From: Candidatus Omnitrophota bacterium
GTDB lineage: Bacteria; Omnitrophota; Omnitrophia; Omnitrophales; JACQLI01
Length of the DNA stretch: 64,000 nt
Reading direction: 5' to 3'
Assembly: GCA_016179745.1 (NCBI GenBank)
Contig: JACPCP010000012.1
Coordinates: forward strand, 789-64,788
Under the pieces are notes generated by a model. It did no database searches. It saw only the letters and a program-made list of their open reading frames with translations, and was not told the DNA's origin. This document shows positions 3,747 through 23,100 of the stretch, piece by piece; positions within the stretch are counted from its first letter, which is position 1; each line of letters opens with the position of its first letter. Position numbers and translations under genes: made by a program.

Positions 3747-4498
3747 CGTAATCTGCTTATCATAGGACTCAGACCATCTTCTCTCATTTCCGTTGGAAAA
3801 ACCATTTGAAGCGCTAAGTCCCTTGTGATGCCTGCCAATTTTTTCAGTTTATCCTTGAGAGAAACCATATCGGGCCTAAGATCCCTTTGTAACTCTTCTC
3901 TTGTTGCCTTCCGTCCGTCCATCCCTTCCTTAAAAGATTTACCAATCAAATCGACTACTCTTGTAATCTCTCTTTCCCATGCCTCTGCCATCAGCCGCTG
4001 ACGGATAATCCGCTCGCCCTGAGTCTTCAATTCCCTTCCGACCCTGAGACCCTTCCTCTCAGAAGATGAAGTTAATGTTTCTACCTGGCCGGCGGCTTCT
4101 TTGTGGGTCCTCTGCAAGAGTTTCCTCAGGAAACTCTGAACTTTTCTTTGAGAGCCACTCCGCACCTCGGCGCGGGAAAGGGAATTTTCCGGAATATTGG
4201 GAGATGCGCTTTTATCATCAAAAAGTATTTTATTTTTTATATTGACAGGGCCCCTTCTCCCCGTTAGAATCTCCCACGTTATGGATGATAATTTCACGCC
4301 CAGGGAAGTCGCAGTACTGGTGGAGGAACTCTGCAGTGAGTTTCGGACCGTTTCAGAAGTCGTGCGGCCGTTAAGGGAGGATATGGCCGATGTCAAAGAA
4401 CGGCTTACGACTCTTGAATTCAAAGTCCAATCGCTTGACGATGCGGTTCGCCTCTCAATCCCCGGCTTGAACAAGCGCGTTTCCCGCCTCGAAGTCAA
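3689..4498 (-). CDS. 269-aa open frame in phase with ORF 4562..20122 (continuation after a single TAA); N-terminal ~110 aa are the antisense image of the + gene 4281..4511
   Basis: ORF track (TTG start). It has the same codon phase as the 5,186-aa ORF and contains motif copy 4160. The part after the motif (SGSQRKVQSFLRKLL...) has normal composition. The part before it is Ser-rich low complexity. Confidence 0.3.
   Translation of the reverse strand: MTSRRETRLFKPGIERRTASSSDWTLNSRVVSRSLTSAISSLNGRTTSETVRNSLQSSSTSTATSLGVKLSSITWEILTGRRGPVNIKNKILFDDKSASPNIPENSLSRAEVRSGSQRKVQSFLRKLLQRTHKEAAGQVETLTSSSERKGLRVGRELKTQGERIIRQRLMAEAWEREITRVVDLIGKSFKEGMDGRKATREELQRDLRPDMVSLKDKLKKLAGITRDLALQMVFPTEMREDGLSPMISRLRCFVKRTSSHFSYWAKCRL
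4160..4174 (-). repeat. punctuation motif copy, RAEVR, canonical DNA
   Basis: The + strand reads ccgcacctcggcgcg(g). It is in frame. Context LSRAEVRSGS. Confidence 0.9.
4242..4270 (+). promoter_or_regulatory. +-strand sigma70-type promoter (cassette 1) with AT-rich upstream block
   Basis: TTGACA (4242..4247), a 17-nt spacer, then TAGAAT (4265..4270). The upstream block ttttatcatcaaaaagtattttattttttata matches the block at 12610..12641 at 32 of 38 positions. Confidence 0.65.
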
Positions 4499-4511
4499 AG
4501 CCGGGATCTGA
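4281..4511 (+). CDS. small (76 aa) coiled-coil protein, paralogue of 12714..13154; near-leaderless
   Basis: The ATG lies 10 nt after the -10 box. MDDNFTPREVAVLVEELCSEFRTVSEVV...LEFKVQSLDDAV aligns with MDAYTVTEVGTLLEEIRTDVKRIAEG... of the second cassette. It is convergent with the end of ORF 4562..20122. Confidence 0.55.
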   Translation: MDDNFTPREVAVLVEELCSEFRTVSEVVRPLREDMADVKERLTTLEFKVQSLDDAVRLSIPGLNKRVSRLEVKAGI

Positions 4512-4537
4512 CTTTCGTCGAACCTCTGACCTGTCCC

Positions 4538-4567
4538 CTTACGCTTCCTTACGCCGAAGTCTTACGC
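4538..4567 (-). repeat. three copies of GCGTAAG (minus strand) placing TAA in all three phases
   Basis: The + strand has cttacgc at 4538, 4548 and 4561. On the minus strand TAA falls at 4564 (phase of ORF2), 4551 and 4541, so the three stops are in three different phases within 26 nt. Confidence 0.8.
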
Positions 4568-7500
4568 CGCCGTTTCGAGGGCACGGTAGAGTTCGGCGTA
4601 GCGCTCAAGGGCGCCGGCAAGGACCTCTGAATAATAGGAAAGGTAAGCCTGGGTTTCCCGCTGGACCCTCTGCCAATCGAGATCCTGAATGATCCGCTTG
4701 AGAAGCGCTTGGTCCCCTTCAAGCCCAAGGGCCTCGATTCGGCTGAAATTTCGCAGGCGCACCGCTACTGAAGGTCCTTCGAGCACAAGAATCTGAGACC
4801 CCTCCAGTGCCTGGCTCAATTCAATCGCCACCTTTCGGGCCACGTCCGCCTCCGCTCGATCTTCCGGCGCCACCACAAAAATCTCCGGCAAAGGGGACTG
4901 TCCCCTTTGCTGCCCGAGTGCCACGAGGAACGCCCCCGCCTTTGCAAACATCTCGGGTCCGACCACAAACGCAGTCTTCGCACCCGTCTGTCGTATCGTC
5001 ATTGCGAGGAATCCCGTCGTCACCTCACGAGCAATCGTCCTAAACGCCCCCGCCTCCGGCCCCTCCGCCGCCACCGCTTCCGGAACTACGAAGAGCTCGG
5101 GGAATTTTACAAGATCTTCGGGCCGATAAATTCTCCCAAGCAGCCTCTCTGCCACACGGCGCACTGTGTCAAAGCGAACTTCCGCCCTTTTTTCCGTTTC
5201 CTCGCTACCTCTCCTCTCTTCCTTTTCTTTCTTGGCGGATTCCTGTTGCTTTTCAAGAAAGGATAGTCCCTCGTTAACAAATTTCTTCACAGTTGTTCCA
5301 GTCCCCTTTGGTGAACGCCAAATGGGGAGCTCACGGAATTGCTCACCTGTAAGTGGAGTAAGACCTTTTTGCTTTCTTACACGATTCACGAAATTAAATA
5401 TGTCCACCGGGTTGTCAAATTGTACTTTTCCTTGTTTGTTAAAATGACGCAGGAGTCTTTCCCACGCATCCTTTTTCATTCTTCGTTCACGCTCCCTTTT
5501 TTTCGCCTCCGTCTTCATCCCCGCCCGAGTCTTCACATACTCAAGGTTATTGCTAATCCTTTGCCGCCGAAACCTAAGACGATCGCCCTGCCTTGTGGGC
5601 TGGTCTTGTTGCGCATCAATAATCTGTCGGAACAATTCTTTCTGAGTTCGTTTCTTTTCGTCATCTGTGCCCCGTACCTCGGCGCGCTGGACTGCCTCAT
5701 CTAACGGTAACCTCCCGACTTGGGTGGGTCTTCTTCCAACCATCAGAAGAATCATATTCCCCGACCTCCCCGGCAACCGCTTCGGGGAAATAACGGGGAC
5801 TAGTGACAGTTCCGTAAATCCGGCCCGTCTCCGTAACTTCCCTAGTATCGTCTCACCGATAACGTTCGGGCTGAAAATTTGAGCTGCCGCCTCGGGATAA
5901 ACGTAGTGGAACGCCAGCAGGTGATCCGTAAGACGGGAAGTATTCTTAGTCCGAATCAAATTTTGAATCTCCCCATAATATCTCGGCCATGCTTCGCTCC
6001 CCTCACCTTGAACTTGATTGGGGATCTTTTGCGCCAGAAGAAGAATAGTGCTGGGCTCGCCAATTTCCCCTGTCATCTCCTCAATCACCGGATAATGCTT
6101 CCCCACTTCTTCGTAGGCGTGCCCCATGACTCCTTGGCCACCCCAAAGGGCGTCCACAGAAACCTGAAGATCGGTGATTTTCCGATCCTTCTTATTCAGG
6201 TTGGCGAAAAAATAGGCCACCGCTTCTTTCTTCTCAACCCCTGAACCGGACAAATGAAAAATTTCGACCCAGAGAATTGCTTGCGATTCATTGGTTTGAA
6301 GTCTCCGGATCTGAAATTGTTTCGTCGGCAACTCCTTGAATTCAAATTTAAAGTCTGGGAGCTCTTTTGCGACAAACTGGAACCGTTCTCCCTTCTTTGA
6401 ACTCCATTCGCTTTTGAAGACCGAAGTCGGCCCTTCCCTATTCACTAAGATCCCAAGCGCCTCGGGAGCATAAACCGTGTATGCTTGCGCCCGCACCTCG
6501 GCGCGGGAGGAAGAAGGTCTGAAAAATTTACGGTCGAGGATGCGGCGGCTGCCGTACATCCAGGTGCTGAGAAAAGCGCGGATCAGGCCCCAGCGGCGGG
6601 CGCGATCAAAATAAATTTCACGGCCGCCGACGTGAATGGCGTAATTTTTTTTCGGGACGCCGAAGTAGTCCAAGGCCGCTTCGAGTTCTGCGATCCTTTT
6701 GACACCGTCCGTCGTTCCCTCATCCCGCCCGTCCGAGGCCCCGAAAAAGACAAATTTGTCCACGCCGTTCTTCTTAAAATACTCAATGAGTCGATACAAC
6801 TGCTGCATCGAGGCGTGCACCCCGACGATCCCTTCCTGAAAAATCCCCGTCATCGGCATAAAACCGAGCCTCTTGGCAGCTTTTAAGGCACTCTGAATCG
6901 CCGGACTCCGGGATAACTCCCCGCCTTCGAAGGCCTCATCCGCAAGCACGATGTATTGGTCCACGATACGGCCGGCCCCGAAGGTCCAGAGGTTGAATTC
7001 CGTGCTTCCTTTCTGAACCGGGCTAAAATGCCGCACGACGGCCTTTCCCCGCCTGACTTCCAGATTGACGTGGCGATCGTTTAGATACGGACTTCGTCGC
7101 AGCCTCAGAAGTCCCTCCGGACGCCGGTCGACCCGCCGCTTACCGGTATCCTGATCGATGAAAACAATTTCTCGCAGGCTGCGATCCCGTTCGATTTGCC
7201 GCGTGACAATTCTCCGGCTTCTTGAGAGGGGGTACTGGGGATTTAAGTCCAGCCGGCCGCGAAGACCGGCCGGCCGTCCCGCTGCCGGCACCGTGACGTT
7301 GGGGGCTTCTTGAAGGAGACGCTGAAGCGTCGGCAGGAGGCCCGCGTCCAAGGCCTGCTGGGTGAGGTTAAACGCCGGATCATTTCCCTTTTCACCCTTC
7401 GGCGCAAATCCGTCCGTAATGAGAAAAACGCCCGGCCGGTCTCGCCGTCCCTGAACCCCATCCGGCAGAAAACTTTCTCCCGTCATTGCCTCTGGAATCT

Positions 7501-10500
7501 TAATTCCCAAAAGATGGAGGAGCGCCGGTGCGGCGTCGGCCTGCGTACCCGGGCGATCTTTGAGGGAAATTTTTCTGAAACCGCCACCCCCTTTGACATA
7601 ATCCAGGATCATGAAAGGGACATCCGAGGCGCTGTGCCCCGGCGTGTCTGCCCCATCAAGCCCCCCGTGGTCCGAAATGGCGACCAGGGCCGCACCGGTT
7701 TCCTGGGCCGCCCCGGTCACGATTTTTACGCCGCGATCCAAGGCCCTCAATGTCTCAATGCCGGAATCCCTGCCGGTCCCCTTTTTCGAAACGAGCCGGG
7801 TGACGGTAATTTCCCGTGCCGCAAAGTCCACGGCAAAAAAAACTTTCTCCCGTGCAGGATCGAAATCGGGAAACCGATTCTGAACTCCCAAGGCCGCAAT
7901 CATTTCTCCGGCCCCGACAAAGACTTCTACGCTGTTCGATGCATTCGCCTCTTGTAAAATATCAAATTGAATGTCAAAACCCGCATCCCCCCGTCGAACT
8001 CCCTTAAGTCGGCCGGTCCGCCCGAGTTCTCGAATGCGTTTCGTAAATTCCCGGCCCATAAAAACTTGATCCTCAAATTCATCATCCTGGACCCACAAGG
8101 TCGCCGATTCATCAAGATGCTGGCTCGCCACGTGGCTATTGAGGTCGGCCATGTCCAGATTGCTAATGACATCCCCGTCAGGGCCTGCCCTTTTGATAAG
8201 GTTCGCGTCCGCACGAGCTACGAAATACATACTTCCGCCGGGATAATGCCACAGATCTTTGTTCGGAAGCTGATTGTAGACTTCAGCCTCCGCAAAGGTT
8301 CCGTCTTTCGTTTTCACTTTCACGGTTTGGCGGATTCGGGGCATGGATATGCTTCCATAATCGAGGTTTTCGTGTCGGTAAGGCTTGTCTCGGCCGCGGA
8401 AGGTCTCGATAAAACCGGTTTTCTCACTCCCAAAACCCCAAAAGACTTTCCTCCCGTGCTTCCCCAGCCATTCGACCAGGCCATGACGCACGATGATATC
8501 CGGGATAACGGCTCTCCTGCTCGCCATTAACTCCTTCACATAACGGGTCATCCCGTAAATCGGCATCCCGCGCACATCCGTCGTGTCTTCATAGGCAAAT
8601 TGATTATCCCGGACGGCCCGGACCCACAATTTCTGCCGGTCTTTTCTATGATTCCAGCCGAATAGAAAGCGTCTCTTCCGAGCCTGCGGCGCCAAAATGC
8701 CAACCGGTCCAAACTCATCAATCTGCATGATGGACCGCATCGTCTCGTCAAAATGACCTGCCTTATATTCCCGGGCCATTATTTTCTTTAACTGATCCGT
8801 CGACCACACATACACAACGCCGTCGGCCAACGAATCAATGGGGACCCTCTTTCTCTTGATCTCCTCCCAGAGGGAGGGCGCTTCTTCTTTTAAGACCAGA
8901 GGGTGGTTGCTCAGGCCCTGTTGGTTTCTTGCCTCAAGCGCACGACGGCCCACAAGGCCGAGGCTCGCGGGGCCACGGATCGGCTTTTTACGGACTTCGG
9001 CGCGCTGAGGCCAGCCGTGCTTCCCGATCAGCTCCACGAACTGGACGGGCCCCAAGTTATCGTAAGACGCCCCATCGTCGGGAGTTAAGCCCCCCCGATT
9101 GAGGCCGGCCAGAATTTTCTGGACCGCCGGAAGAACAGGCTTTTCGATTTCAAACTCAGTAAAGAATATTTTCGGGGAACTTGCGTTGACCTTGGGTTCC
9201 AGAATCAAACGGACCTTCGTATTCCCAAACTGTTTTTCCGGCGTTTCGCTCCGCACCTCGGCGCGGGAGGGCGGCCGGCCCCTCCTTAACCGCCCCATCT
9301 CAACCTCACCACGGGAGATGCGGCGGCCATCCCGCCCGGCACTTTTGGAAATGGTACCGATCCGGGTACGCGGCCCCGCAAGAGCTCTGCGGGCCTCGGA
9401 GCGGAAGAAAGAAGGATCCGTTCGATCCCCAGGAAAGTTCTGTTCACTCCAGCTATCAGCAGAAGCGTCTATCACTGAAATTGCCGACCCACGGGGCATT
9501 CCTTGGGGTTCCAGATAAACGGAGCCGTCCGGTTCGACACGGTCAATTCGAAACGAAAAATCCAAGTCACCAGGCTCGCCGCCCAGTAAAAATCGGATGG
9601 ACTCATTGGACCCTACGGTCAGGTTCAGGTGAGTAGACCAATCCTGGGTCGGATCGATTGCCTGCAAAAGGGAGGGCACATCAGCCTTTTTAAAATGATC
9701 CTCGTGGGCAATTTTAACCACCCGAGGCGCATGAATCCGCACCTGAGTCAAAGCTCTTCCACCTCGACTCCTTCGTCTTTCTCTGGGTTGTATCCAAATT
9801 TTCCTCCGAGTGCCGTTGACGATCAGACCGCTGATTTCAAGTTCTTGGCCCTGCGCAACCCTGAAGATCTGCCTAAGCGCTGCGGCCGGTAACTGGGGTA
9901 AAAGCTCTATTTGAGGGTCCGTCCTTCTCAATAAAAGTCCTGGTCTGACATTAGGGGCCGGTCCTTCTGAGAGCGAAATCAAAACCCTTCTCCTGGGATT
10001 CTCTGGATCGCTCACGACCCATTCCTTCCCGGCATCCAATGGCAAGCTCTGTTCCTTCGAAGCTTCCAAGGGCGGAGCGTCCGCCCCTTTCTCATAAACC
10101 GTCACACCCCCCTGAATCATGAAGAAGTTTTGATCAAGATTATCTCCGACACGAACCGCCGCTCTGGACCCTGACGGAAAATGGATTTGGACAGTGCCGA
10201 AGTCTCCGTTTGCTTCTGCCGGATTCCACACAAACATTTCGTTGAATTCCTCTCCGCTCCGCACTTCGGAGCGGAGGGTGTCGGCGGCGGCAAAGGCACG
10301 CCCTTCCTCGAGACGCTCGACCAGAGCTTTGAAGTCGGTAAATTTCGTCTTCTGCGCCACAAGGGTATTTAAACCGAGCGCCTTGACTCCTGACAGAGTC
10401 AACTCAAAGTAACGGAGAGAGTTTGAATCTCCTGGATGTTGTTCCACTTCACGAACCCAGCCCTCTCCTATTTGATCCGGAGAGCCGGTGTGCAGGAGGA

Positions 10501-13500
10501 TCGGGGCCTGAACGCCCTCTGCTCTGAGCGCTTCGATCAAGTCACGGCCATTTAATCCAGGAAGTCCGTTATCAATAACCAAAAGGTCAATTTCCTTATC
10601 AACTCGTTTGTCTAAAAGAGACCGAAGAGCCGCTTCTCCGTCTCCAAATTCCGTAATCTTCTTCCCTTTGAAATGTGCCTTTAGAGTCTCCCTCATGCCT
10701 TCATCATCCTCGACAATAACCACGTTCTGAATCTTCCGCCCTCCCCTCAAGAGCCGGATTTGATTCGGCGCCAGCGTGAGCTCCGCCCGATTTGTTTCCT
10801 GCCGCACTTCCACTCGAGCGCCGGTCAGTTTGATGCGAAACCCGTCTGGGATCTCGATCGTGACCGTCCGGCCCGGTTCGCCGCCGAGATGGCGGATCAA
10901 GGGCTCCGAGACGAAGACCTCGATCGCATTTTCCGTTTTGGAATAGCCGAAGCCCGTAACGGCCGGAAATAACGGCGCCTCACCCACTCTTTCAATCTTG
11001 CTCAGAAGAGTCCCTTCCAGAATGACTGACTGGCCGGGCCGGTGGACAAACCTGAACAGGCTCTCCGCCCCCTTGACAGCTTCCAGCACGAAATTCAACG
11101 GATCGGCAGACCGAACATAGGTTGATCCAAAATCGTGTTCCCCGGATTTGCTGGTGCTCAGGGCCTCATGGACTTCCCAGGGAAAATGTTGAAATGTGAC
11201 CTTTGCCTCTCCAAATTGAGCGGCCGCCTGAACTGCGCTCTCCGGAACAAAGGATTCGGCTTCCTCTACGATAAAAGCATTCTTTACCAGGACGTTGTAG
11301 ATGAAGTCCCTGGACCGTGTTCCGCTCTTCCCTTCTCCGCTCCGCACCTCGGAGCGGGCCTCGTCACGACGGTGAAGCTGAGGTAAGCCCGAGAGAGAAG
11401 TGGGCTGGCTCGCTGCGGCTTGAGTCGATTTTTCCATCTTTTTCAGACGCTGATAATGCTGCTCTCGGACTTGCCAAACAGTAAGCCCTTGCTTCGAATC
11501 CAGAGGTTTTCTTAAGCGTTCGGCTTCCTGCCTTCTTAGCCGATCGAGGTCAAAACCCAGGCTCGTCCGAACCAGGTCAAGCTTGCTTAGGTCACGAACG
11601 GGTGTGTCTCCAGGCGATTGGACCCAAACATTACCAAACGGGTGGGAATGAGCGTAAATTTCGCTGCCCGTCTGGGGCACCAGAGATTGACCGAGGGCAA
11701 GAAAAGGCAGACTCTCCACCGCAATCACAATGCCCTGTTCATCCGGCTGCAAGACTTTGGCTGATTCGACGAATCCCAGTCGTGACGCAAGCTCCTGGGC
11801 TTCCTCCCTCATGGAACCATCCTTTTGTCCGTCCCGAGGTTTTCCCAGAAAAAAGTCTCCCTGATGTAAGAGAAATACCGGTCTCCATGCGAAATAGGGC
11901 TTGAAGCGGCCGACTTGACGGGGGTGGGGGGAATAAATCAAGGCGAGCTCGTAATTCCGGCTGATTGCATCCTCCAAGTTTTTAAACCCCTTGAACGGAT
12001 GGAAAAAGTGAATCCGGGGTTCTTGAGGCGAATCCCGTGAAATGACGCCCGAACTGTAGGGTCTTGCCCTTTTTTTAATTTCGTTAAAGAACAAGGGGTA
12101 GGCTTCTTTTTTCGTGAGAAGGATCAAGCTGATGGCGTAGGCGTAAAGGTTCATCGAACGCCCCGTCTCGGCATGCCCATAAAGATTGACGAGGAACTTC
12201 AGGGACTCTTCCGTCCCGTAACGGTCGACCCACTGCATCAATAATTGATCAAGCGTCTGCTGGATCTTTTGAGGCTGCTTTTTGACCTGTCTTAACCTGA
12301 GCAGCCGCTTCTGCTCACGGTTCAGCTCTAAGAAATGCTCTTGAGCCGGCAGGCCGTTTGGGTTGAATTCTCCTTCTTCACCAATGAGATCCTTCACAGT
12401 TTGAATCTCTCTTTCAATTTCCCCCAAATTCGCCGGATGATCCCGGTAATCAATAAATTCCTGGACATCGCCAAGCCAGCTAAAGAACGGTTGTGTGCTC
12501 ACCCGCACCTCGGCCCCCGGCTCGGACGGAGCCGGGGACGGAGGAGTGCTCGCCTGAGCGGGCGAGCGCACCTCGGAGCGGGCTGGCTGGCGCTTATCAA
12601 AATATGTATTTTTATCATCAGAAGATATTCCATTTTCTATATTGACAAACTCGCCGGCCGGCGCTACACTCCCTCCCCCTGTTTTAAAGAACTCATTCAC
12701 CAGGAGAATTGCGATGAAAAGAGAAAAACCAGTGAAGCCAGCTAAAAAGATGGATGCATACACGGTCACAGAAGTCGGAACGCTGCTTGAAGAGATCAGG
12801 ACCGACGTCAAGAGAATCGCTGAGGGCCACTCGGGACTTGATAAGAGATTAGAGGATATTGAAGTCTCAAACCACGGGATCCAAGATCGTCTCCAAATGG
12901 TGGAACTCAGCAACTCAATCATTAAAGGCAAAGTCTCCAGACTTGAGGATGCTACTTCAAAACTGTTGAAGGATCTCAAAGACACCCGCCTGGAACTTAA
13001 GGCCGACATCGCCCAGACAAAGGTTGAATTGAGAAACGAAATGGCTGAGATGAGGGTTGAACTCAAAGCAGAAATTGTGGGTTCCAAGACCGAGCTCAAG
13101 AATGAGATCAAAGAACTCGGCGGCCGGTTGAGCGCTGTCGAAAACCCACGCTGAGTTTTTACTCTGCGCACCTCGGAGCGGGAGAGGGAGGCGTAAAGAT
13201 CCCGGGCGCGGGAGAGGGTGTCCGGAGTAAAATTGGCGCCGGTCAAGACAATGGCGATTCTCCTGTCCCGAAGAAGAGGCCTATACTCTTCTTTTGACAT
13301 CAGAAAATAAACCACGGCCAGCGAGGCGGCGGCCGAGGGTTCAACTTTATACCCTGCCTGATTGAGATCAACGAACGCCCTGATCAGCAAGTCTTCGGGG
13401 AATTCCACAAATTCGAAAAGTTTCGATCCGAAGGCTTGAAGCGTCTCTACCGCAAGCTTCTGCGCCATTTGGATCGCAAGCCCGTCGGCCATCGAAGCAT

Positions 13501-16500
13501 CTCGAAGCATCGGAACGGCGCCGATGACCTTGGTCTTGCCGCCGTGAGCATGGGAATCGAGGGTCATTCCCACGAGCGGCCCTCCCCCGCCGGAAGGCAT
13601 CACCAGATAATCCGGATCGCCGATCGCCTCCCGAATGTCCTCCAGAATGCTCGCTCCGCCCAAAGCCATACTCTCCCCATTGGAAGCATAGACGTGAAGC
13701 ATCCCTTTCTCCTTCGCATACGCCTCCAAAACGACAAGAAGCTCATTGATATTGACGAGCCGATGCTTGATCTTGTCTTCGCTCTCCCCCGGATCGAGCA
13801 CTCCCGCCACCTGAGCGTTAAGGATAAAATCATCCAAATAAACGATTTCCACCAAATCGACCGTTGGCACACGCTTAAAATTCCTCCAAAGGTAATAAGG
13901 TTTCTCAAACTTGCGGATCTTCTTTTTCTTGGTCTCATTGAGGAAGGTGTAGGCCACCATCGTCACCTTAAAATCGGGCGGGAGTTTCCAGAGCGTGCCG
14001 TCTTTCAGAACGATCCCGTGTTTTTTCAGGTAACGCACCGTGTAGAGGAGCCCCTGAATGGCATTGCCGGAGGAATAGATTACCGCTTCTTTCAATTTTC
14101 CGGAATCGATCGCTTCCCGGTTTTCAATGAGGAGGTTGACATACTGACGCCACTTGAAAGATCCCACCGGCGACAAATATTCCCGGGCGGCGAACAGTTC
14201 GAAGCGAACGCCTGTCCGCTCTATGAATTCCCGAACAGCGGGGAGATGGGTAAGGGAAACGATCTTTGGTTTGAAAAGGCGCCGAATCAGATAGAAAATC
14301 CGGCCGAAGAAGCTGGTTTTTGCACGGATGAGCTGACGCACAAACTCTGTTCCCCGTTTGAGCCGTTCAAGGGGGAATTGATTTAAGAAGGCATTTCTTT
14401 TTGTGAGATCCCCTTCGGGCGCGGCCTCGGGAACTTTCCCTTCCGGACTTCCATTCCGTCGCCACGTGGCGTGGTAAAGCCGGAGGTATTTTTTCACAAG
14501 CAAAAGGGGACTGTCCCCTTTTTTGGGGACTGTCCCCTTTTTGTTGGGTGGGCTCTTATTCGGGCTGAACCGCTCGATATCTTCCAGGGCCGGCATAAAA
14601 TCGATTCCTTCCAGCCGTCCCAGTACACTGGCGTAATCTTTGAGCTCTGAAATCCCCTTTGAGGCTTGGATCTTTTGAAGAAGGCCCCTTTTTGCGGAAA
14701 GATTTCTCAAGTGTCTGATGAATCCCCTGTTGCCTTGGAAAAGATCGAGAACTTTGTTCACAACCCGGGCACGCTCCCGAAGCCCTGCCTGGTCTCTTCC
14801 GTCCGGCTCTGAAAGTCCCCGCCCTTTAAGTGCCTTAATCACAAAATTGGAAATGATTGTGAAATCCGGAGGGTTGGTCCCATTGACGCTTTCCCTCGCC
14901 GCAGACATCAAATCATCGGGCGCCAGCACTTCTATCATCTCCTGATAAATCTCCTCCGCCAGCTCATTGCCCCTGAGCTCGGAGCGGCGGGGGGAGGAGA
15001 TGGATTTCCGGAGAAAGGGTTCGCCATTGATCCAGAGTTCCAGCGAATCGGCCGGCGTTTCCGGCTTGAATAAATGCCGGCCTTCCGGGGTGACAAAGTA
15101 GAAGGTTACAGAACGGCGGTCGCCGTGGAGGGGCTGCGCCGCCAGAAGATAACCGGACTCCTGCAGAATCTTCCGGACTGATCGCAAAGCGATTTTTTTC
15201 TCTTCCGGTAACCGGGCAGCGTCAAGATACTGTTCGAATTGCTGCTCCAGAATCCCTTGAAGAGTCATCTGGGAAGGCATGCTCCGAGGACGATCCAGCC
15301 CGGAGGGGTCCACCTCCGCCACCAGGGGGAACTTCAATTTTGATTCCGGAAAATCCAGATGAAGGACCGGGAAATCTTCAATGACCGGGAAGGCTTCATC
15401 TTCTTTCGGGCTTCTCATCCGGAGAATCACTGTGTCTTCCGGAATTAAATTTCTCCTTCTCCAATCCAAAATGCCGTGAGTGACCCCGATTTTTTTCGCT
15501 TGAGCCGACGGAGGCCCCGGCCTTTCGGACTCCCTGGAAAGATCCAAAAGACGGCCGAGCAGCCGGTCGATTCTCTCAGCCCCTTCCTTTGTAATAGAGG
15601 TGCGCCGCTCGCCGGCGCCCACAGGAAGCCTGAAAGTCCGGGTCTTTCTTCCTGTTTCTTTCACATGGCGCCTCTGCTCCCGGACTTTTTCGAGGGCTCC
15701 GTCCTTTTCAAAAAGCTGCAGAGCAAAAATGGCGGACAAAAACTGGCTCTCCAATTCAGCCAGCCTTTCCAGAGCGGGGCTGATCTGCCGCCACGTCTTC
15801 ACCACATTTCCGGCTTGGGCCTGCCACCTTTCGCTTAAACTTTGATATTGCTCTCTCCAGGGGGACTGGGCTTCTTCGCTGGGCGCTGACACAAACGCCT
15901 GATAGGCCGTCGCCAACTGCTTTGTGGTCCGGAAAGCGGACCCCTCCTGGTGCGCCAAGGCCACGGGTGTCAATTCATCGTGGAAAGTCACTCTTACTTC
16001 AGAGCGGACGAACTCCGGCGTTGACGGAGTCGAACTCTTGGGCGGTGCGCTTCTGGCGAGAAGCCGGCCCGTAAGATCAAAGAGATGGGTAATGTCTTCA
16101 GTCCCCTCCTGTCGAAAGATGATCCGCACGCCTCCGTCGTCCGGATCCACAAAAAAATCGAAATCCCCGTGGGTCTCAAGCTCATCCTGCTTGAGCCAAA
16201 CCATGGACCCATTGCCCGTGCTCTTCGGAATCAGGAGGGGGATCGGCTTTCCGTCTTCCGCCTGAAAGAGATGGAAGTGTCCCTTGGCGTCCACAACGAC
16301 CGCCACAGCCTCCCTCAGGTGGGACGGCGCACCGGAAGAGTTGGCAACCAGGTCGAAGAAAGGCCCCTCCGGATCGCCTCCGACTCTAAAAGAAAAGGAC
16401 GACCTTCCCAGAGGGACCATCTTCAGCGTCTTTCCGCCTGTTTCAAACAGGAAGAGCGTCAGATACCGTGTCGCCGGAAACTTCGGAGAAGAGACCATGA

Positions 16501-19500
16501 CAACGATAAGCTCGGGGGATCCCCTGCCGATCGTGGTGATTCTGCTCGTCACCTTTCGCCGGTTAAAAAACCGGCCGTCCCCCTCGAATTTGATTCCCTT
16601 GAGGGGCCCCAGGCTCTGACGGATCCCCTCTTTCGAAACTCCCTTCAAACTCAGCGCTTTTTCGAGGGTCCCCCAGGGATTCCACCAGCCGTTTCCCAGG
16701 GAGAAGGACTGGGCCGGAATGCTGACCCTTTTCAACGTCTGGCTTGAGCCCTTGGAGGAGGAAGCCCCGTAGATCTTGCCCAGGCGGACATTTTTAAATA
16801 CCACAGATTTCTTTTCAACGGCCAGCTCCCAAAGGTCCATCACCCGGCCGATCTCAGCCAGCCTCGCCGCTTCACTTTGCTTCATCGTAAACCCGGAAAC
16901 ATTCATGAGGTCGGTCACCGGAGACCCCGTTTCCAAAAACTTCCCGTGCTGGACCATCGCCTTCATTAACGCCCGGAGGTGGATTCGAATTTGTGCGTCA
17001 TGGTCCCAGAGATACAGCTTGTCAATGAGGGTCCTGCGGCCGTCCGGAGCGTCAGGAAATCGAATCAGCGCCGGTGCTACCAGCTGCTGCGGGGACTTGG
17101 CTTCCGGGTCCGCTACTTTAAAAGCGCTCCTGAGCAGGTCCGTGAAACTTTCCGGAGTCGGCCTTTCCACCTTTTCCGAGCGCACCTCGGAGCGTTCGGC
17201 CGGGGCCGTCTGCGCCGGAGAGGGAAAAATTTTTCCGCTCCAGACCTCATGATTTTCATTGGCGCCGCTCAAAAGGACCACAAAGGCGTCCATCCCCTCT
17301 TTCTCCCAGAAATCCCGAAAGACGGTCGGAGCGGCGGCCGTCACCCCGGCGGTGACTTCGTAACGGCGTTCCTCTCCTTGATTCAAACCTTTGAGATCCT
17401 TCGCAACTTCCCGGACTGCAGGAATTCCATATTTCACCTCATCCACCTTGACCACGTAATCAACCACGTCCCATGCAAGTTTCCATGGAATTTCGATCCG
17501 CTCCACGGCAATCCCCTTGGAGAGCGTTCCGGGCGGGATCGCCCGGGTCACCTCCCGGCCATTTCTCATCGCCTCATAAAAGCCGTCGATCCCGGGTGTC
17601 TGGACGCCGATGACCTTGACTTCCACGTCAAGGCCCGATTCCCGAATCTGGTCTTTCAGAATCTTGGCGCCTGCGACAAGGCCTCCCGCCCCGACCGGAA
17701 CGGCCACTCCGATCCGCTTTGCCGGCAGACTCCCATTCTCCGCCGCCCTGCGAATCTGGTTGAAGATTTCATCGAAGATCGTGGCATAACCGGTCACGAC
17801 TCCCGCAAAATGATTGACCCGGATCACTTTCCCTGGCTGGTCCTTTTTAAGCCGGGAGACGGCCTCTTTGGCTTTGTCATAGGTCTTGCGAATGAGAAGC
17901 TCAAACGTGATGCCCTGTTTTTTCAAGCGCTGCTGCGCCTGTCGAAAAATCTTGATCTTCTCCGGGCCGGTCGAATCCTCTCCCACGGCAACAACAAGCC
18001 TTGTTTTCTTCCTGTCAATCTTCCCGGCCTCTGCCAGTTTCTCAAACGCCAGAAGGAGGGCGTAACCGTGGTTGAAGGTCGTCTGCGTGGCGATGGCCTC
18101 GATTTGCCGGCCTCCCGTCTTTGCCCGTTCAATCTCCTGCAGAACGAAATTCAGAACGCCGAGGATCTTGAACGAATTCCCCGGATTGCGGGTGGCGTCA
18201 TAAAGGTAGACCGGCTTCCCCGCCGCAGCGCTGATCCTCCCGGCCCTCACCCATTCCGGGTATTGAATCTCCTCAAACCCCGAGTCCCGGATCCGCTTTT
18301 GGGCCAAACCGATCGCCTCGGAATCCAAGCCCGGGAAACGCTCCAACCGCTCTGGATTCTCATTCTTAAGGATGCCCCCGCCCACTTCCCGGAATGGCGT
18401 TAAATCGTTCCGTGCTTCAGAACGAATAACGGAAAATCCGCTTTTGAGAAACTCCCGGCGGGCTTCCTTGCGGCTCTGTTGAATGGGCCTGAAATCAACG
18501 CCGTGCCAGCGGTAATCACGATAGGCCACCGGCAGGGCGGCGGCGTCTTCAATCTGCGAAAAAGGGTAAGGGGAAACCGGTTTTCCCAGAAAGGCATTGA
18601 AGTAGCTCTCTCGAGACTCCACTTCACCCTCCCCCCCGGAAACGGTCTCATCGAACCGGGGAGAGACGAGCGCATAAGAGAATCCTTTTTGATGGAAGGT
18701 TTCTCTCAAACCGTCCGTGTGGAAACCGCCCGTAATGAGGATGACGGCCCGGGCGCCGTGGCGGCGGATTTCTCTTTCGACATTCTCCGCCATCCAACGC
18801 TCCCGCTCCTTCGCCCCTTCATAAAACCCGATGGCCTTCCGAAGAAAGGAGGAAAGCGCCCCGGGAAGCCGGACACGATCCAGTCTCTTCAGGCGGGGAT
18901 AATCCTTTGCGGTGATTTCCAATTCGAAGAGGCGCCGAAGGAACCGGTAATCGAAAAATTCCTTAAGATGCCGCTTTTCTTTCGCCGTTTTGGCGAGACG
19001 GAATGAAAGAAGCCGGCCCAGGCGGTCGAGCTCTTCGGAAAGCACGTCCGGCTTGATTTCATTCCGGAAGACGAGCCACTGGAGCCAGATCTTCAGATAA
19101 GGGTAGCGGTCAAAGACGAAGTTGAGAGGCAGCCGGTCAACGGCCCTCTCAAGAAGAAATCGGATGTCACCCTCTCCCTCCCCTCTCCCCCCAAGAAGAA
19201 GAATTTCCAGTTCCTGGAAAATGGATTTTGGAAGAAACCTCCGCACGTCGTTTAGAAAACGGCCGGAGTCCTTTCGGATCGCCCGGCGGTCGAGGCGCCT
19301 TTCGATTTTGAGGAGCCGGGCGAGGCGCACGAGGGCGGGCCATTCCTTCTGGGACGAGGCAGACTGGAGATTGAGCCCCAAAATTTGGCGGGAATTTTTA
19401 TGAAGCTCACGAAACCAGGCGTCCAGGCCCAGCGTCCGGCGCTCGAAGGCCTCCTGCCGCCTCAAAAATTCCCGGAGCGGCCTTGAAAAGCCCGCTTCAA

Positions 19501-20122: not shown

Positions 20123-20142
20123 CTCGGAAAAGGGCGGGGCGC

Positions 20143-23100
20143 CTATGCCGCCACCCCGAACAAGCGTTCTCTTGCGATTGCGGAAGCGTAATAACTGGCA
20201 AAATTCTCTTCCTTGCCCCGGCGGATCGACACGGAAGAGAGTTGTTCTGTCTGGACATTAATTTTCAGAATTGAATCCGGGACCTTTTGAATCAGGGTGC
20301 CGGGCCGGTTGTGCACAACCAAGTCCAGAAGAGCGGCCTGAGCCCCTTCGTGCGCCGGCGGACGAATGACAAAACCTTCACGGTGAGCTGAGCCCTGGAA
20401 CTCCTCCAGTTCTGCTTCCTGAAGCTCCTCCCCGAGAGGGCTCGGTGGCAGGATCAGAATCGGCACCGTTCCCTCCTCCTTCTCAAAAATTTCCCGCAGC
20501 CGGTTCGGCGTCAGTCCCGGCTCGTGATATGTTTCGTGAATGATTTGGACGCCCGGGATTCGAATTTTGTCATAGCGGCCAAACGCCCCCGAACCCTGAG
20601 GCAGGACGACATAGATTTTGCTCCCCGGCAGAAGCCCGAGCGGTTCCGGGTCGATTTCGGGAATCTCATTTTCAAATCCGGCAATCACGATCGTGTGGGG
20701 CGCCTCAGAAACGGGACGGCCCGGAAACGGGGGGTGAACTCGGGCCAGATTCCCGGCGGGGGCGGCCCCTTCGCCGAATCCAAGCGCCGAGCGGAAGAAG
20801 GGGGCAAACACTGGAAGGGTGAATTCCGGCCCCGCCACGCCAAAGGTTACGAACCCTACAACCCAAAGCATATCCGGCAGCCGCCGGCCCTGACTCGCCA
20901 GCAAAGCGTCCAACCTTTCTTGAATTTTCTGTGACTGCCTTGCCTCGGAACGCCCGGCCGCCAGGGCCAGTGCGCCGTTTGCCAGGACCCAAACAACATT
21001 CTGTGGTAGCCCCGGATACGGATTTTTCCCCTGTAACACCACCATATCGGCAACGGCCTTCATATAACCCTGGGCACCCGGATCACCCAAATAGGCCAGG
21101 ACCGCATTCGCAATGCCGATGGAAAGCAAAGTCTCTTTCTCCCGGTCCGCCTCAACGGCCTCATCCGGTTTAGACGAATCAGACAATTTTCTATCCTTCA
21201 AATTCGACAGCCGGTTCTTTGCCACCCTGTTCCCCCGAATCGCCAGCATTCCATTTGCAACGGCGTCGGCATACCCGCCTAACGTTGTCAAGGCCTTGAT
21301 GATGGAATGAGAATCTTTGTCCCTGAGGAGCGTCAAGACTCCATTGGCAAGCACCCATATCAGCATGGCTTTCTTTTGAAAGATTTCTACCGGGGCTTGC
21401 GATGATAGCTCCCTCAGAATCTTTTTGGCCTTCTCTACTTGTTCTTTTCTCTGTGACGAAACCTCTCCTCCGGCAGGGGCCAGGGCCATCCCGATGACGG
21501 CAAAGAACTTTTCGAACCGCTGCGTCTCCCCGTTTTTGTCAAAGGTCACTTCACCTTCCACAAGCTTCTCAAGCTCCCCAAAGGCCTCCTCATCCCCGCC
21601 CAAGGCCAGCATCAGACGGGCCAGGGCCGTCGCATATTCGGGGCCGGAAATTTTAATTTCTCCTCTGATAAATTTCCTGAGGTTCTCGGCCTCGGAATTT
21701 TCCGGCTGGCTCCCAGCCTCAGTCTCCTCCTGCACATGGGGCACAGCAGACCGCACCTCGGAGCGGGAGGGAGCGGGTTTTGCTGTGTCCGGAGGCGTGG
21801 GGTTCCTGCCCAATTCCTCTTTGACTTTTCCAACCCCCGATGCTTCCTTGGCCGCCTGCTTCTGACGCCACTTCCTGACAATCTCAGCCTCCGCTTGATC
21901 CCTCTTGACCTTTCGGTAGTAAAACCAGGTATTCAGAGCAAGGCCGGCGGCAACCGCAATGCCTAATCCGATGTAAACCATCGTTGATATTTCCATCCGG
22001 ACCTCTGAACGCAAAGCGCCGGGTTTGAGGATGATGTTGAGTTCGTCTTTGGAGACTTTCCCCTGAGTCTCGAGCCACTTCAAGATGGCAGGGGCAGGGG
22101 TGAGGAAATTTTTCGCCACGATCGTTTGAAGTTCCCGCACATCACGCTCGCTCAAACGGCCCAAAACTTCCCGAAGCTTTTGAGACGCCTCAGGAGTCGG
22201 ATTGAGCTTGCCGCTGAGGAAAGATTTTGTCTTCGCTTCCAATTCGCTGATTCGACTCTCCGGCAAACCTCCGGCAGGGGCTTTTGAAGGCTCAACCGCC
22301 TTGTCGCCCGCCGTCACCGGCAGGGCGGCCCGGCGCACGCCGCCGGACCGTTCCCGGGCGATAGCAGCCTTGAGGCCGGCCAAACTCACATTGCCTTGTT
22401 GGGCCTTGACGACGGGAAGGTCCAGAATGAATTTCTGCGTTTCCTCCATCAACTGAACCAGTCTGGCTTGATTCGGCGCTTCAAACTTCAAGCCGAATTC
22501 GTGGGTGGTCCCCGAGAAGCGGAAAAGGGCAAAGCTCCCGTCGGCAAATTTTACCCGGACCCCGTCTTTGAGTTCGCTGATCCCGATCGCCTCCGTAATG
22601 TTCTGTGAAAAAGCGCCGCCCGACTTTTTCGCCTTCTCCGTCTGAATCGCCATTTCAAAGCCGCCGATGATTTGTCGTTTGGTCCCGTCATCCGTCGGAG
22701 CTTTGTTCCCCCGAATATCCGGCGTGAAAAATTTTCTGCGGGTCGGAAGCGCATCGAAAAGGTCCTTCAGCTGATAACTTTTCTTACCCGGCTTGATCCG
22801 GAGAAACTCAAACTGGGCTTCGTATTGACCGAGCGTGTCCACAATGTCGAGAATTTCGAGGAGCGTGCGGGCGGCGTCGTCAACGAAGTAATCCGCATTT
22901 TGTGCCCCCATCCCCCGATAGAAGACGTGGCCCGAGGCCTCGGCGGAGACATAACGGTCCTCCAACCTGGCAATGTTCTTATCGAACTTTAGCTCCACGT
23001 GATCGTTTTTAAGCTTCTCAATCTTCGCCATCTGCTCTTTGAGAAACGCCTTGTGGTGGGGGTAACCGGCCGGGATGTAGCGAGTGCCCAAAACGTCCTG

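Follow-up and report, generated by a model that had tools for sequence, protein, structure and literature searches.

A predicted coiled-coil gene nested antisense in a giant ORF of an Omnitrophota bacterium and bracketed by two copies of a recurrent peptide motif

What is the origin and the role of two perfect 17-nt direct repeats that enclose a small gene in the genome of a Candidatus Omnitrophota bacterium (GCA_016179745.1, contig JACPCP010000012.1)? In the initial annotation of the 64,000-nt stretch analysed here (the window) it was suggested that the repeats bound a 600-bp cassette, and that the repeated motif might be a recombination or insertion site (integron-cassette-like or dif-like), or a substrate for unequal recombination, by which modules could be shuffled without loss of the reading frame. 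The observation itself was confirmed in every detail: GCGCACCTCGGAGCGGG occurs on the plus strand at 12566-12582 and again at 13166-13182, 600 nt apart start to start, and the identity does not extend beyond 17 nt. The proposed interpretation was only partly supported, since the self-contained gene unit is real but the role of the motif as a DNA recombination site is not supported.

The two copies bracket a sigma-70 promoter (TTGACA-17-TACACT, 12642-12670, plus strand), an AGGAGA Shine-Dalgarno sequence (12702-12707) 6 nt upstream of the start codon, and an ORF of 146 aa (12714-13154, plus strand; ATG at 12714, stop at 13152-13154). Both copies carry the GCGCAC variant, which is indeed the rarer one, as 3 of the 20 near-copies have it (12566, 13166 and 17180). 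Cassette 3 was also correctly described as bracketed by identical 16-mers at 2508 and 2913. The motif family is far beyond chance: 20 copies were found within 3 mismatches, all of them on the plus strand, against 0.4 expected. It had been recognized that the motif is always in phase but the consequence was not drawn: all copies sit in one phase of the minus-strand ORFs, and the whole interval lies inside a minus-strand ORF of 5,186 aa (ORF B, 4562-20122) which has no stop codon across the cassette.

The window is covered by a chain of stop-free minus-strand ORFs of at least 14,618, then 5,231, 290 and 864 open codons, which carry TIM, aldose epimerase, PGK, GAPDH, GPI, FBP aldolase, PGM, iPGM, PALP, response-regulator and HATPase domains. 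ORF B itself has a Sec-type signal peptide, two PALP-like modules, a response-regulator domain and an iPGM_N domain. Such ORFs of more than 10,000 aa, tiled by many distinct enzyme families, match the published giant genes of Omnitrophota, i.e. the multi-enzyme ORFs with glycolytic domains called 'Archaeovorins' by West-Roberts et al. 2023 (bioRxiv 10.1101/2023.11.21.568195) and the 'multi-enzyme metabolic cluster' class (bioRxiv 10.64898/2026.06.07.730766), including the presence of a signal peptide or TM segments, and the relatives retrieved are all labelled Omnitrophica/Omnitrophota, an uncultured bacterium, or Candidatus Taenariivivens. These papers state that the cleavage points are unknown and, in the text that could be searched, they mention neither a recurrent R[SA]E[VL]R motif nor genes nested on the opposite strand; no paper mentioning RSEVR or nested genes in these ORFs was found in the literature.

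In order to clarify the nature of the repeat, its copies were examined in the frame of the giant ORFs. The 17-mer is the codon string of an in-frame peptide, R-[S/A]-E-[V/L/I]-R, which occurs 34 times against 0.13 expected, usually 5-40 aa after the end of a domain and never inside a Pfam envelope, although it is absent from some junctions, for example between TIM and aldose epimerase. The upstream copy (13166-13182, minus strand) reads CC|CGC TCC GAG GTG CGC, that is (S)RSEVR, and lies about 5 aa after the native C-terminus of a serine/threonine-dehydratase-like (PALP) module and 12-26 nt past the stop of the plus-strand gene. This divergent PALP module occupies 13183-14401 (minus strand), and its alignment reaches profile position 309 of 310 just before the motif. 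The downstream copy (12566-12582, minus strand), with the identical 17-mer, reads (A)RSEVR and is followed by a Pro/Ser-rich linker. A degenerate extra copy (GAEVR, GCC GAG GTG CGG; 12503-12517, minus strand) overlaps a GC-rich hairpin at 12508-12544 and is followed by GTG and the next module (STQPFFSWLGD...).

The perfect identity of this particular pair is not beyond chance. Among the 34 in-frame copies 14 of the 561 pairs are identical 17-mers, and permuting their order gives 0.82 adjacent identical pairs on average against the 1 observed (P = 0.58). Ten related giant ORFs hold the same peptide 74 times (0.65 expected) with quite different codons and conservative V/L/I/M exchange: in the related locus L004 (related loci are numbered with the prefix L) RSELR is encoded by CGT TCA GAG CTC AGG, and L018 has 13 copies with 13 distinct 15-mers. 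Other lineages use other short peptides at the equivalent position (AGLEE or AARLA), which are also codon-diverse. Nevertheless, in this genome the motif shows a nucleotide-level bias which a pure peptide signal does not predict: 19 of 34 copies are CGC[T/G]CCGAGGTGCG[G/C], against about 0.3-0.5% expected from codon usage, EV is encoded by GAGGTG in 20 of 31 copies inside the motif against 18 of 100 outside, and the S-type and A-type copies are regionally clustered, which points to some DNA-level homogenisation or an added RNA-level role.

The bracketed unit was clearly shown to contain a conserved gene. The encoded protein has a basic N-terminus followed by one long predicted helix (residues 18-143, pLDDT 89), and it belongs to a family of well-aligned sequences (19 homologues, 42-63% identity), for which Pfam, NCBIfam and a PDB profile search gave only generic coiled-coil hits. 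Pairwise differences at codon positions 1, 2 and 3 of the plus frame are 0.365, 0.251 and 0.601, position 1 exceeded position 2 in all 500 bootstraps, and the mean BLOSUM score is 2.52 in the plus frame against 1.70 in the minus frame, so the plus frame is the frame under purifying selection; furthermore, purine skew flips inside the cassette. The promoter and the Shine-Dalgarno sequence are conserved in the 12 nested copies compared: the -35 hexamer, the 17-nt spacer and a TAnnnT-type -10 recur, 11 being perfect TTGACA-17-TAnnnT while L014 has CAGAAT. No intrinsic terminator was detected after the gene, and a search of the whole window against Rfam returned no family.

Members of this family are nested antisense in giant ORFs in about 15 distinct further loci, always in the same relative frame, which shares wobble positions with the host, and the host frame is open through the gene in every nested copy. 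Under synonymous shuffling the probability of no stop is 0.03-0.75 per copy, with a product of about 1e-12 for the coding regions, and the product for the leaders is 1e-13; the one copy outside a giant ORF (L015) does have an antisense stop. R[SA][ED][VLA]R-type motifs were found on both sides in 11 of the 19 copies with a resolved plus-strand gene, and several of the rest are cut by contig ends. At the locus studied here the minus-strand spacer between the motif copies (12583-13165) is the stop-free antisense translation of the nested unit (P = 0.0016 for being open by chance), it contains 21% Ser, and it has one TM-like stretch, SIFLAGFTGFSLFIAILLV, which is conserved, thus the spacer may not be mere junk.

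Two further units of this kind were recognized in the window. Cassette 1 (4160-4561) lies directly after the single TAA that ends ORF B and comprises a RAEVR motif (4160-4176), a TTGACA-17-TAGAAT promoter (4242-4270) and a 76-aa paralogue of the coiled-coil gene (4281-4511, plus strand); its antisense frame is open (P = 0.025). Cassette 3 (2508-2929) sits inside ORF D and comprises RAEVR motifs at 2508-2524 and 2913-2929, a TTGACG-17-TATTAT promoter (2541-2569) and two small hydrophobic plus-strand ORFs (2577-2768 and 2780-2896), which gave no family hits and had no homologues in any of the loci retrieved; the probability of its open antisense frame is 0.086. Longer plus-strand ORFs (up to 687 aa) were considered as further nested genes or recombinases but had no Pfam hits, and were therefore treated as shadow ORFs.

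Taken together, with moderate confidence, we interpret the two 17-mers as two of the 34 copies of a peptide-level punctuation motif which delimits the modules of the giant ORFs, while at this junction a small independent transcription unit sits on the opposite strand between the end of the dehydratase-like module and the start of the next one. In this view the giant ORF would be translated straight through the antisense of the unit, giving a Ser/Leu-rich nonsense spacer whose frame is kept free of stop codons by selection, one motif copy on each side would mark where the spacer ends and the real modules begin, and the motif would most likely be a proteolytic processing site that releases the modules and discards the spacer. 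The analysis demonstrated that the motif is in frame, massively enriched and conserved across genomes as a peptide, that the nested gene is under purifying selection, that the host frame is kept open by selection and that the bracket arrangement is conserved. However, the expression of both strands, the translation through the spacer, the cleavage at the motif and any biological role of the coiled-coil protein and its head-on promoter (possibly tuning or segmenting the expression of the giant gene) are inferred from sequence alone. Published proteomics on V. archaeovorus reports peptides from a giant ORF only in general terms, and no protease domain was found in the window ORFs; a clan AA aspartic protease is nested in relatives (L008, L014), without a demonstrated link to the motif.

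The alternative that the motif is a DNA recombination or insertion site (integron-attC-like, dif-like or REP/RAYT-like), or a substrate for unequal recombination, and that the direct repeats are the scar of a mobile cassette, seems unlikely, as it failed every test that was run. It should be emphasized that several observations are in line with it: self-contained units with their own promoters lie between in-phase motif copies at three places in the window, homologous units sit between non-homologous modules in other genomes with several per genome, their cargo in relatives includes toxin-antitoxin-like pairs typical of mobile cassettes (DUF433 with a partner, and an aspartic protease pair), many motif copies in this genome are identical at the nucleotide level with regionally clustered variants, and distant homologues of the upstream module lack a cassette at the same junction. 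On the other hand, besides the codon diversity and the chance expectation of an identical pair, the motif marks most module boundaries, including ordinary ones without cargo, and the DNA homology between cassette copies covers only the promoter and the gene: the match of the window to L007 spans 12641-13154, from promoter to stop, and that of L013 to L014, both from the same MAG, spans the gene plus about 26 nt, neither of them reaching the motif. There are no inverted repeats at the ends and no larger tandem duplication, no recombinase or transposase domain was found in the giant ORFs or in the six longest plus-strand ORFs of the window, and the paralogues of cassettes 1 and 2 are only 31% identical, so there is no recent movement. 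As for presence or absence of the cassette in relatives, which would be the decisive comparison, a metagenome scan with the downstream module found no relative, word-indexed protein searches with both flanking modules found nothing, and only 35-43% identical modules were detected in other giant proteins, so that no close relative of the flanking modules exists in the searched collections; occasional in-frame recombination between identical motif copies remains possible as a side effect.

The comparison with individual mobile systems led to the same direction. Like integron gene cassettes, these are small self-contained units, including toxin-antitoxin-like cargo, bounded by a recurring site and found in different neighbourhoods, but an attC site consists of imperfect inverted repeats of about 57-141 nt folding into a hairpin, while here the only repeat at the borders is a 17-nt direct one and the motif has a stem of 4 bp at most. 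Furthermore, integron cassettes are mostly promoterless and co-oriented, next to an IntI tyrosine recombinase with attI and a common promoter, whereas no integrase was found in the giant ORFs or in the six longest plus-strand ORFs of the window, and no attI or Pc in the window, each unit has its own consensus promoter and is opposite to the host gene, and the homology of the copies does not end at the supposed site. With REP/BIME elements the motif shares the short, GC-rich, partly dyad-symmetric sequence, repeated many times on one strand at gene-end-like positions and homogeneous within this genome; however, REP sequences are extragenic imperfect palindromes of 20-40 nt associated with a RAYT (Y1 transposase) gene, while all 34 copies are in frame inside ORFs, are 15-17 nt long with a 4-bp stem and are conserved as a peptide across genomes, and no RAYT gene is present in the window. 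A dif/Xer site (IMEX insertion) has 28 bp with two 11-bp arms and is present about once per replicon, but there are 20-34 copies in 64 kb and the dyad covers only CGCNCC/GGNGCG.

It is similarly doubtful that the motif acts at the RNA level, with its GAGGTG core as a Shine-Dalgarno-like element displayed in a small CCGC...GCGG hairpin loop, which would pause ribosomes at module ends or re-initiate translation of the next module, the peptide being a by-product. GAGGTG matches the Shine-Dalgarno sequence of the organism (the ordinary gene downstream of ORF D uses GAGGAGGTGA), it encodes E-V in 65% of motif copies against 18% elsewhere in the ORFs, a few copies (63477, 2927, 12503) are followed by ATG or GTG at 5-8 nt, and L017, at 45% GC, still uses GAGGTG in nearly all copies. 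However, most copies have no start codon at a usable distance in any consistent frame, in L015, L018 and L023 most copies (RSELR and similar) contain no GAGG or GGAG at all although the peptide is conserved, the AGLEE-type motif of another lineage is also codon-diverse, and the hairpin has only 4 bp. Finally, that the plus-strand ORF is merely a shadow of a functional, TM-containing minus-frame segment is very unlikely, since, although the two frames share wobble positions (the frame where shadow ORFs are commonest) and the hydrophobic stretch is conserved, codon position 2 of the plus frame is the most conserved, the expression signals recur, an ATG and a stop are conserved in all copies, a confident single long helix is predicted, and the family also occurs outside an open host frame (L015, and cassette 1 behind a stop codon).

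The arrangement can be compared with the cleavage-site motifs of viral polyproteins (e.g. picornavirus 3C or potyvirus NIa sites), where a short peptide also recurs between the folded modules of one very long ORF; here it is likewise conserved at the amino acid level with synonymous variation and is lineage-specific, but the host is a bacterium with metabolic enzymes, no cognate protease has been identified, cleavage is only inferred and some of the products would be nonsense spacers. It also resembles antisense overlapping genes and shadow ORFs of bacteria, in which two long ORFs lie on opposite strands in the frame that shares wobble positions. The difference is that here both sides have strong evidence, namely a promoter-bearing conserved gene and a host frame kept open by selection in about 15 loci across a phylum, and that the host-frame product is probably a spacer rather than a second functional protein.

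A more far-reaching hypothesis, which is possible but has to be considered tentative, is that the multi-enzyme giant ORFs of Omnitrophota may be stop-free operons. Ribosomes would translate without interruption across the module junctions, including the antisense of embedded, promoter-bearing genes, and a lineage-specific protease would then cut at R[SA]E[VL]R ([AS]G[LQV]EE or [AG]ARL[AS] in other lineages), releasing the housekeeping enzymes and discarding the nonsense spacers, while the nested head-on promoters and their coiled-coil product would tune or segment the expression of the giant gene. The motif copies would then be the long-sought cleavage points of these proteins.

The giant ORFs of Omnitrophota, up to about 147,000 aa, are a recent puzzle, and according to the published work it is unknown whether and where they are cut. 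A phylum-wide 5-residue motif, with other short peptides in other lineages, that sits just after domain ends offers concrete, testable candidate cleavage points. The nested genes with consensus promoters, through which the host frame is kept stop-free, provide strong sequence-only evidence for antisense overlap, which bears on how such ORFs grow, for example by stop loss across intergenic regions or by insertion into permissive linkers. Annotation is affected as well: gene callers systematically miss the nested genes, and some predicted TM helices, together with some of the sequence without recognisable domain in giant proteins, may be antisense read-through of small genes.

The sequence GCGCACCTCGGAGCGGG is present on the + strand at 12566-12582 and again at 13166-13182, the two copies being 600 nt apart, and their identity covers exactly 17 nt and does not extend further. 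Between the copies we found a TTGACA-17-TACACT promoter at 12642-12670, an AGGAGA SD at 12702-12707, and an ORF running from the ATG at 12714 to the TGA at 13152-13154. Near-copies of the 17-mer occur 20 times, all of them on the + strand, against 0.4 expected, and cassette 3 carries identical 16-mers at 2508 and 2913. The initial annotation, which had described a 600-bp unit between perfect direct repeats and a similar bracket around cassette 3, was correct in its observation.

The context of these repeats changes the way they should be read. The minus strand of almost the whole window is open reading frame: ORF A covers 20146-63999 with at least 14,618 codons and runs off the window, ORF B covers 4565-20257 with 5,231 open codons and has its ATG at 20122, ORF C covers 3692-4561, and ORF D covers 1257-3848. 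A Pfam search recognized ordinary enzyme domains strung along these ORFs, namely HEAT, triosephosphate isomerase, aldose 1-epimerase, GFO/IDH/MocA, PGK, GAPDH, cupin-type GPI, class II FBP aldolase, metallophosphoesterase, PGM/PMM, two PALP-type modules, a response-regulator receiver, iPGM_N and HATPase_c. This is the architecture published for Omnitrophota giant genes: West-Roberts et al. list TPI, GPI, FBA and PGM domains and state that the cleavage points are unknown, and a 2026 preprint defines a "multi-enzyme metabolic cluster" class. Four of the six related genome loci are labelled Omnitrophica/Omnitrophota MAGs, and the other two are an uncultured-bacterium MAG and Candidatus Taenariivivens.

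ORF B begins (19900-20122) with a Sec-type signal peptide (MRPFQKKLQQRIIAFGTALVFTVTSLPFLAHEAWA), and about 60 residues further on there is an N-terminal region (..VVHLQTAHGDYEAQKK..) which is shared with P0020, P0023 and P0026 (..IQDAHTN..AQ.N), three of the giant or large secreted proteins of other lineages that share the dehydratase-like module; the enzyme-like modules would therefore be exported. ORFs B and C are in the same frame and are separated by a single TAA (4562-4564). Cassette 1 lies directly behind this stop and its antisense frame is still open (P = 0.025), which could reflect stop-codon read-through, a recent nonsense mutation or an unfused precursor state. ORFs C and D overlap at 3692-3848 in different frames. 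The three giant ORFs A, B and D, whose C-termini lie at 20146, 4565 and 1257, all end in Ala-Ala (..GVAA, ..ETAA and ..ESAA before the stop), and distant homologues end similarly (..RAA, ..TAA, ..RSA, ..QSA); this may be a conserved C-terminal signal, and it resembles ssrA/Prc-type tails. Downstream of ORF D, on the minus strand at 1-1256, there are ordinary genes with a GAGGAGGTGA SD: an antitoxin-like gene, a MazF/PemK-like toxin, a ribbon-helix-helix-like gene and the start of a tryptophanyl-tRNA synthetase gene.

Every copy of the 17-mer lies in the same phase of the minus-strand ORFs and reads R-S/A-E-V-R (CGC TCC/GCC GAG GTG CGG). At the peptide level R[SA]E[VLI]R occurs 34 times in 21,003 residues, against 0.13 expected. 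None of the copies falls inside a Pfam envelope, and where a domain end could be placed the motif follows it closely: 14 aa after the aldose epimerase, about 30 aa after PALP 1, 5 aa after PALP 2 (where the NCBIfam alignment reaches position 309 of 310), about 37 aa after the response regulator and 19 aa after HATPase_c. It is thus punctuation at module ends. Furthermore, it is a peptide signal, since ten other Omnitrophota giant ORFs contain 74 copies against 0.65 expected, with V/L/I/M exchange and diverse codons; in the related locus L018 the 13 copies are 13 distinct 15-mers, and in the related locus L023 10 of 10 are distinct, only one of those being SD-like.

Distant homologues of the upstream module are found in giant proteins of other lineages (P0020-P0030), and at the equivalent position these use other recurrent short peptides, [AS]G[LQV]EE or [AG]ARL[AS], P0026 alone having more than 20 copies. 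In the one case checked, the AGLEE-type copies of locus L028 (3001-6003), these are codon-diverse as well. The punctuation peptides appear to be lineage-specific. Among the 34 copies of the window 14 of 561 pairs are identical 17-mers, and one adjacent identical pair is what permutation predicts (mean 0.82, P = 0.58); the perfect repeat therefore needs no insertion event.

The + strand ORF between the repeats encodes a 146-aa protein with 19 database homologues at 42-63% identity, which are called as separate genes of 110-169 aa. Their alignment shows the conserved blocks YTVTEVGTLLE, AEGHSGLDKRLE, HGNSRRLD and RLEDAVSKL. AlphaFold predicts a single long helix over residues 18-143 (pLDDT 89), whereas sequence searches gave only generic coiled-coil matches. 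In 12 compared copies the upstream region carries a TTGACA -35, a 17-nt spacer, a TAnnnT-type -10 (11 of them fit TAnnnT exactly) and an SD. Since the two frames share wobble positions, we compared + codon positions 1 and 2: the pairwise differences are 0.365 at position 1, 0.251 at position 2 and 0.601 at position 3, and 0 of 500 bootstraps reversed positions 1 and 2. BLOSUM scores also favour the + frame, and the purine skew flips inside the cassette. The + gene is real and it is the frame under selection.

The host frame is nevertheless kept open. In about 15 distinct related loci the homologous gene lies antisense inside a minus-strand ORF which is open across it, always in the same relative frame. 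In 11 of the 19 copies with a resolved + gene, R[SA][ED][VLA]R-type motifs lie on both sides, 26-146 nt past the + stop and 71-434 nt before the + start, and several of the remaining copies are cut by contig ends. Synonymous shuffling gave a probability of no antisense stop of 0.03-0.75 per copy, with a product of about 1e-12; the AT-rich leaders are also stop-free, with a product of 1e-13, and for the whole cassette of the window P = 0.0016. The single copy that lies just beyond the stop codon of a giant ORF (locus L015) does carry an antisense stop. The minus-frame product of the cassette is 21% Ser, against 6% in ORF B as a whole, and it has one TM-like stretch at 12637-12693, SIFLAGFTGFSLFIAILLV (KD 2.35), which is antisense to the Lys-rich N-terminus of the small protein and is conserved in relatives.

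The arrangement is not restricted to this junction. Only three strong consensus promoters exist on the + strand of the window, and they are those of the three cassettes. In 162 kb of giant ORFs from 11 loci (the window and 10 related loci) the consensus TTGAC[A/G]-N16-18-TAnnnT promoters number 17 on the antisense strand and 2 on the sense strand. Other bona fide small genes are nested antisense in open giant ORFs of relatives: a DUF433 gene (E = 3e-20) with a DUF5615-like partner (L014, 7969-8545), a small gene with a TIGR02281-type clan AA aspartic protease (L014, 1886-2496, and L008, 660-1267), and a HicB-like gene (L025, 524-748). The nested aspartic protease might be a candidate for a processing enzyme, although only a putative one on present evidence.

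The initial annotation had also raised the possibility that the motif doubles as a DNA recombination site, and this part of its interpretation was not supported. The flanking modules of homologous cassettes are unrelated between genomes and genomes hold several copies, which is compatible with shuffling. However, homology between the copies covers only the promoter and the gene, it stops at the + stop codon or within about 26 nt past it, and it falls short of the motif even for two copies in one MAG. Additionally, cassettes 1 and 2 are only 31% identical, there are no inverted repeats at the ends and no larger duplication, and no recombinase domain was detected in the giant ORFs or in the six longest + strand ORFs of the window. 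No relatives close enough for comparing presence and absence of the cassette were found in the collections searched; at 35-43% identity, homologous modules in other giant proteins have a punctuation peptide but no cassette at this junction.

There is also a residual DNA- or RNA-level signal. In this genome 19 of 34 copies share CGC[T/G]CCGAGGTGCG[G/C], against about 0.3-0.5% expected from codon usage, and E-V is encoded by GAGGTG in 20 of 31 motif copies against 18 of 100 elsewhere. The variants are regionally clustered: nine consecutive RAEVR copies (2522-9265) are followed by eleven consecutive RSE[VL]R copies (10273-33984), and the copies with canonical codons concentrate at 1-22 kb and 55-63.5 kb while those at 22-55 kb are codon-diverse. 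The clustering suggests local homogenisation or a different age of different segments. The signal as a whole suggests local homogenisation or an added SD-like pausing role in some lineages, but it is not general and no consistent downstream start codon exists. A GC-rich inverted repeat at 12508-12544 (16-nt arms, 88% complementary, 5-nt loop) lies in the Pro/Ser linker and overlaps a degenerate motif copy (GAEVR, 12503-12517), which is followed by GTG and the next module; in the giant mRNA it could occlude an SD-like GAGG.

The analysis itself shows the in-frame, peptide-level punctuation motif, the selected antisense gene with its own promoter, the selection for an open host frame and the conservation of the bracket. 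It is only inferred that ribosomes translate the giant ORF across the antisense unit, that the motif copies on each side are processing sites separating the nonsense spacer from the enzyme modules, and that the head-on promoter and its coiled-coil product modulate the giant gene. Our confidence in this explanation as a whole is moderate, being high for the anatomy, whereas cleavage at the motif remains tentative.

The class of giant ORFs is already known, nevertheless neither the motif nor the nested antisense units were mentioned in any paper that we could search. What is described here differs from known overlapping antisense genes and known polyprotein punctuation as a variant of these kinds. 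Some of the many TM helices predicted in giant proteins may arise from read-through of the antisense strand of small nested genes, and the motif makes the question of where giant proteins are cut directly testable.
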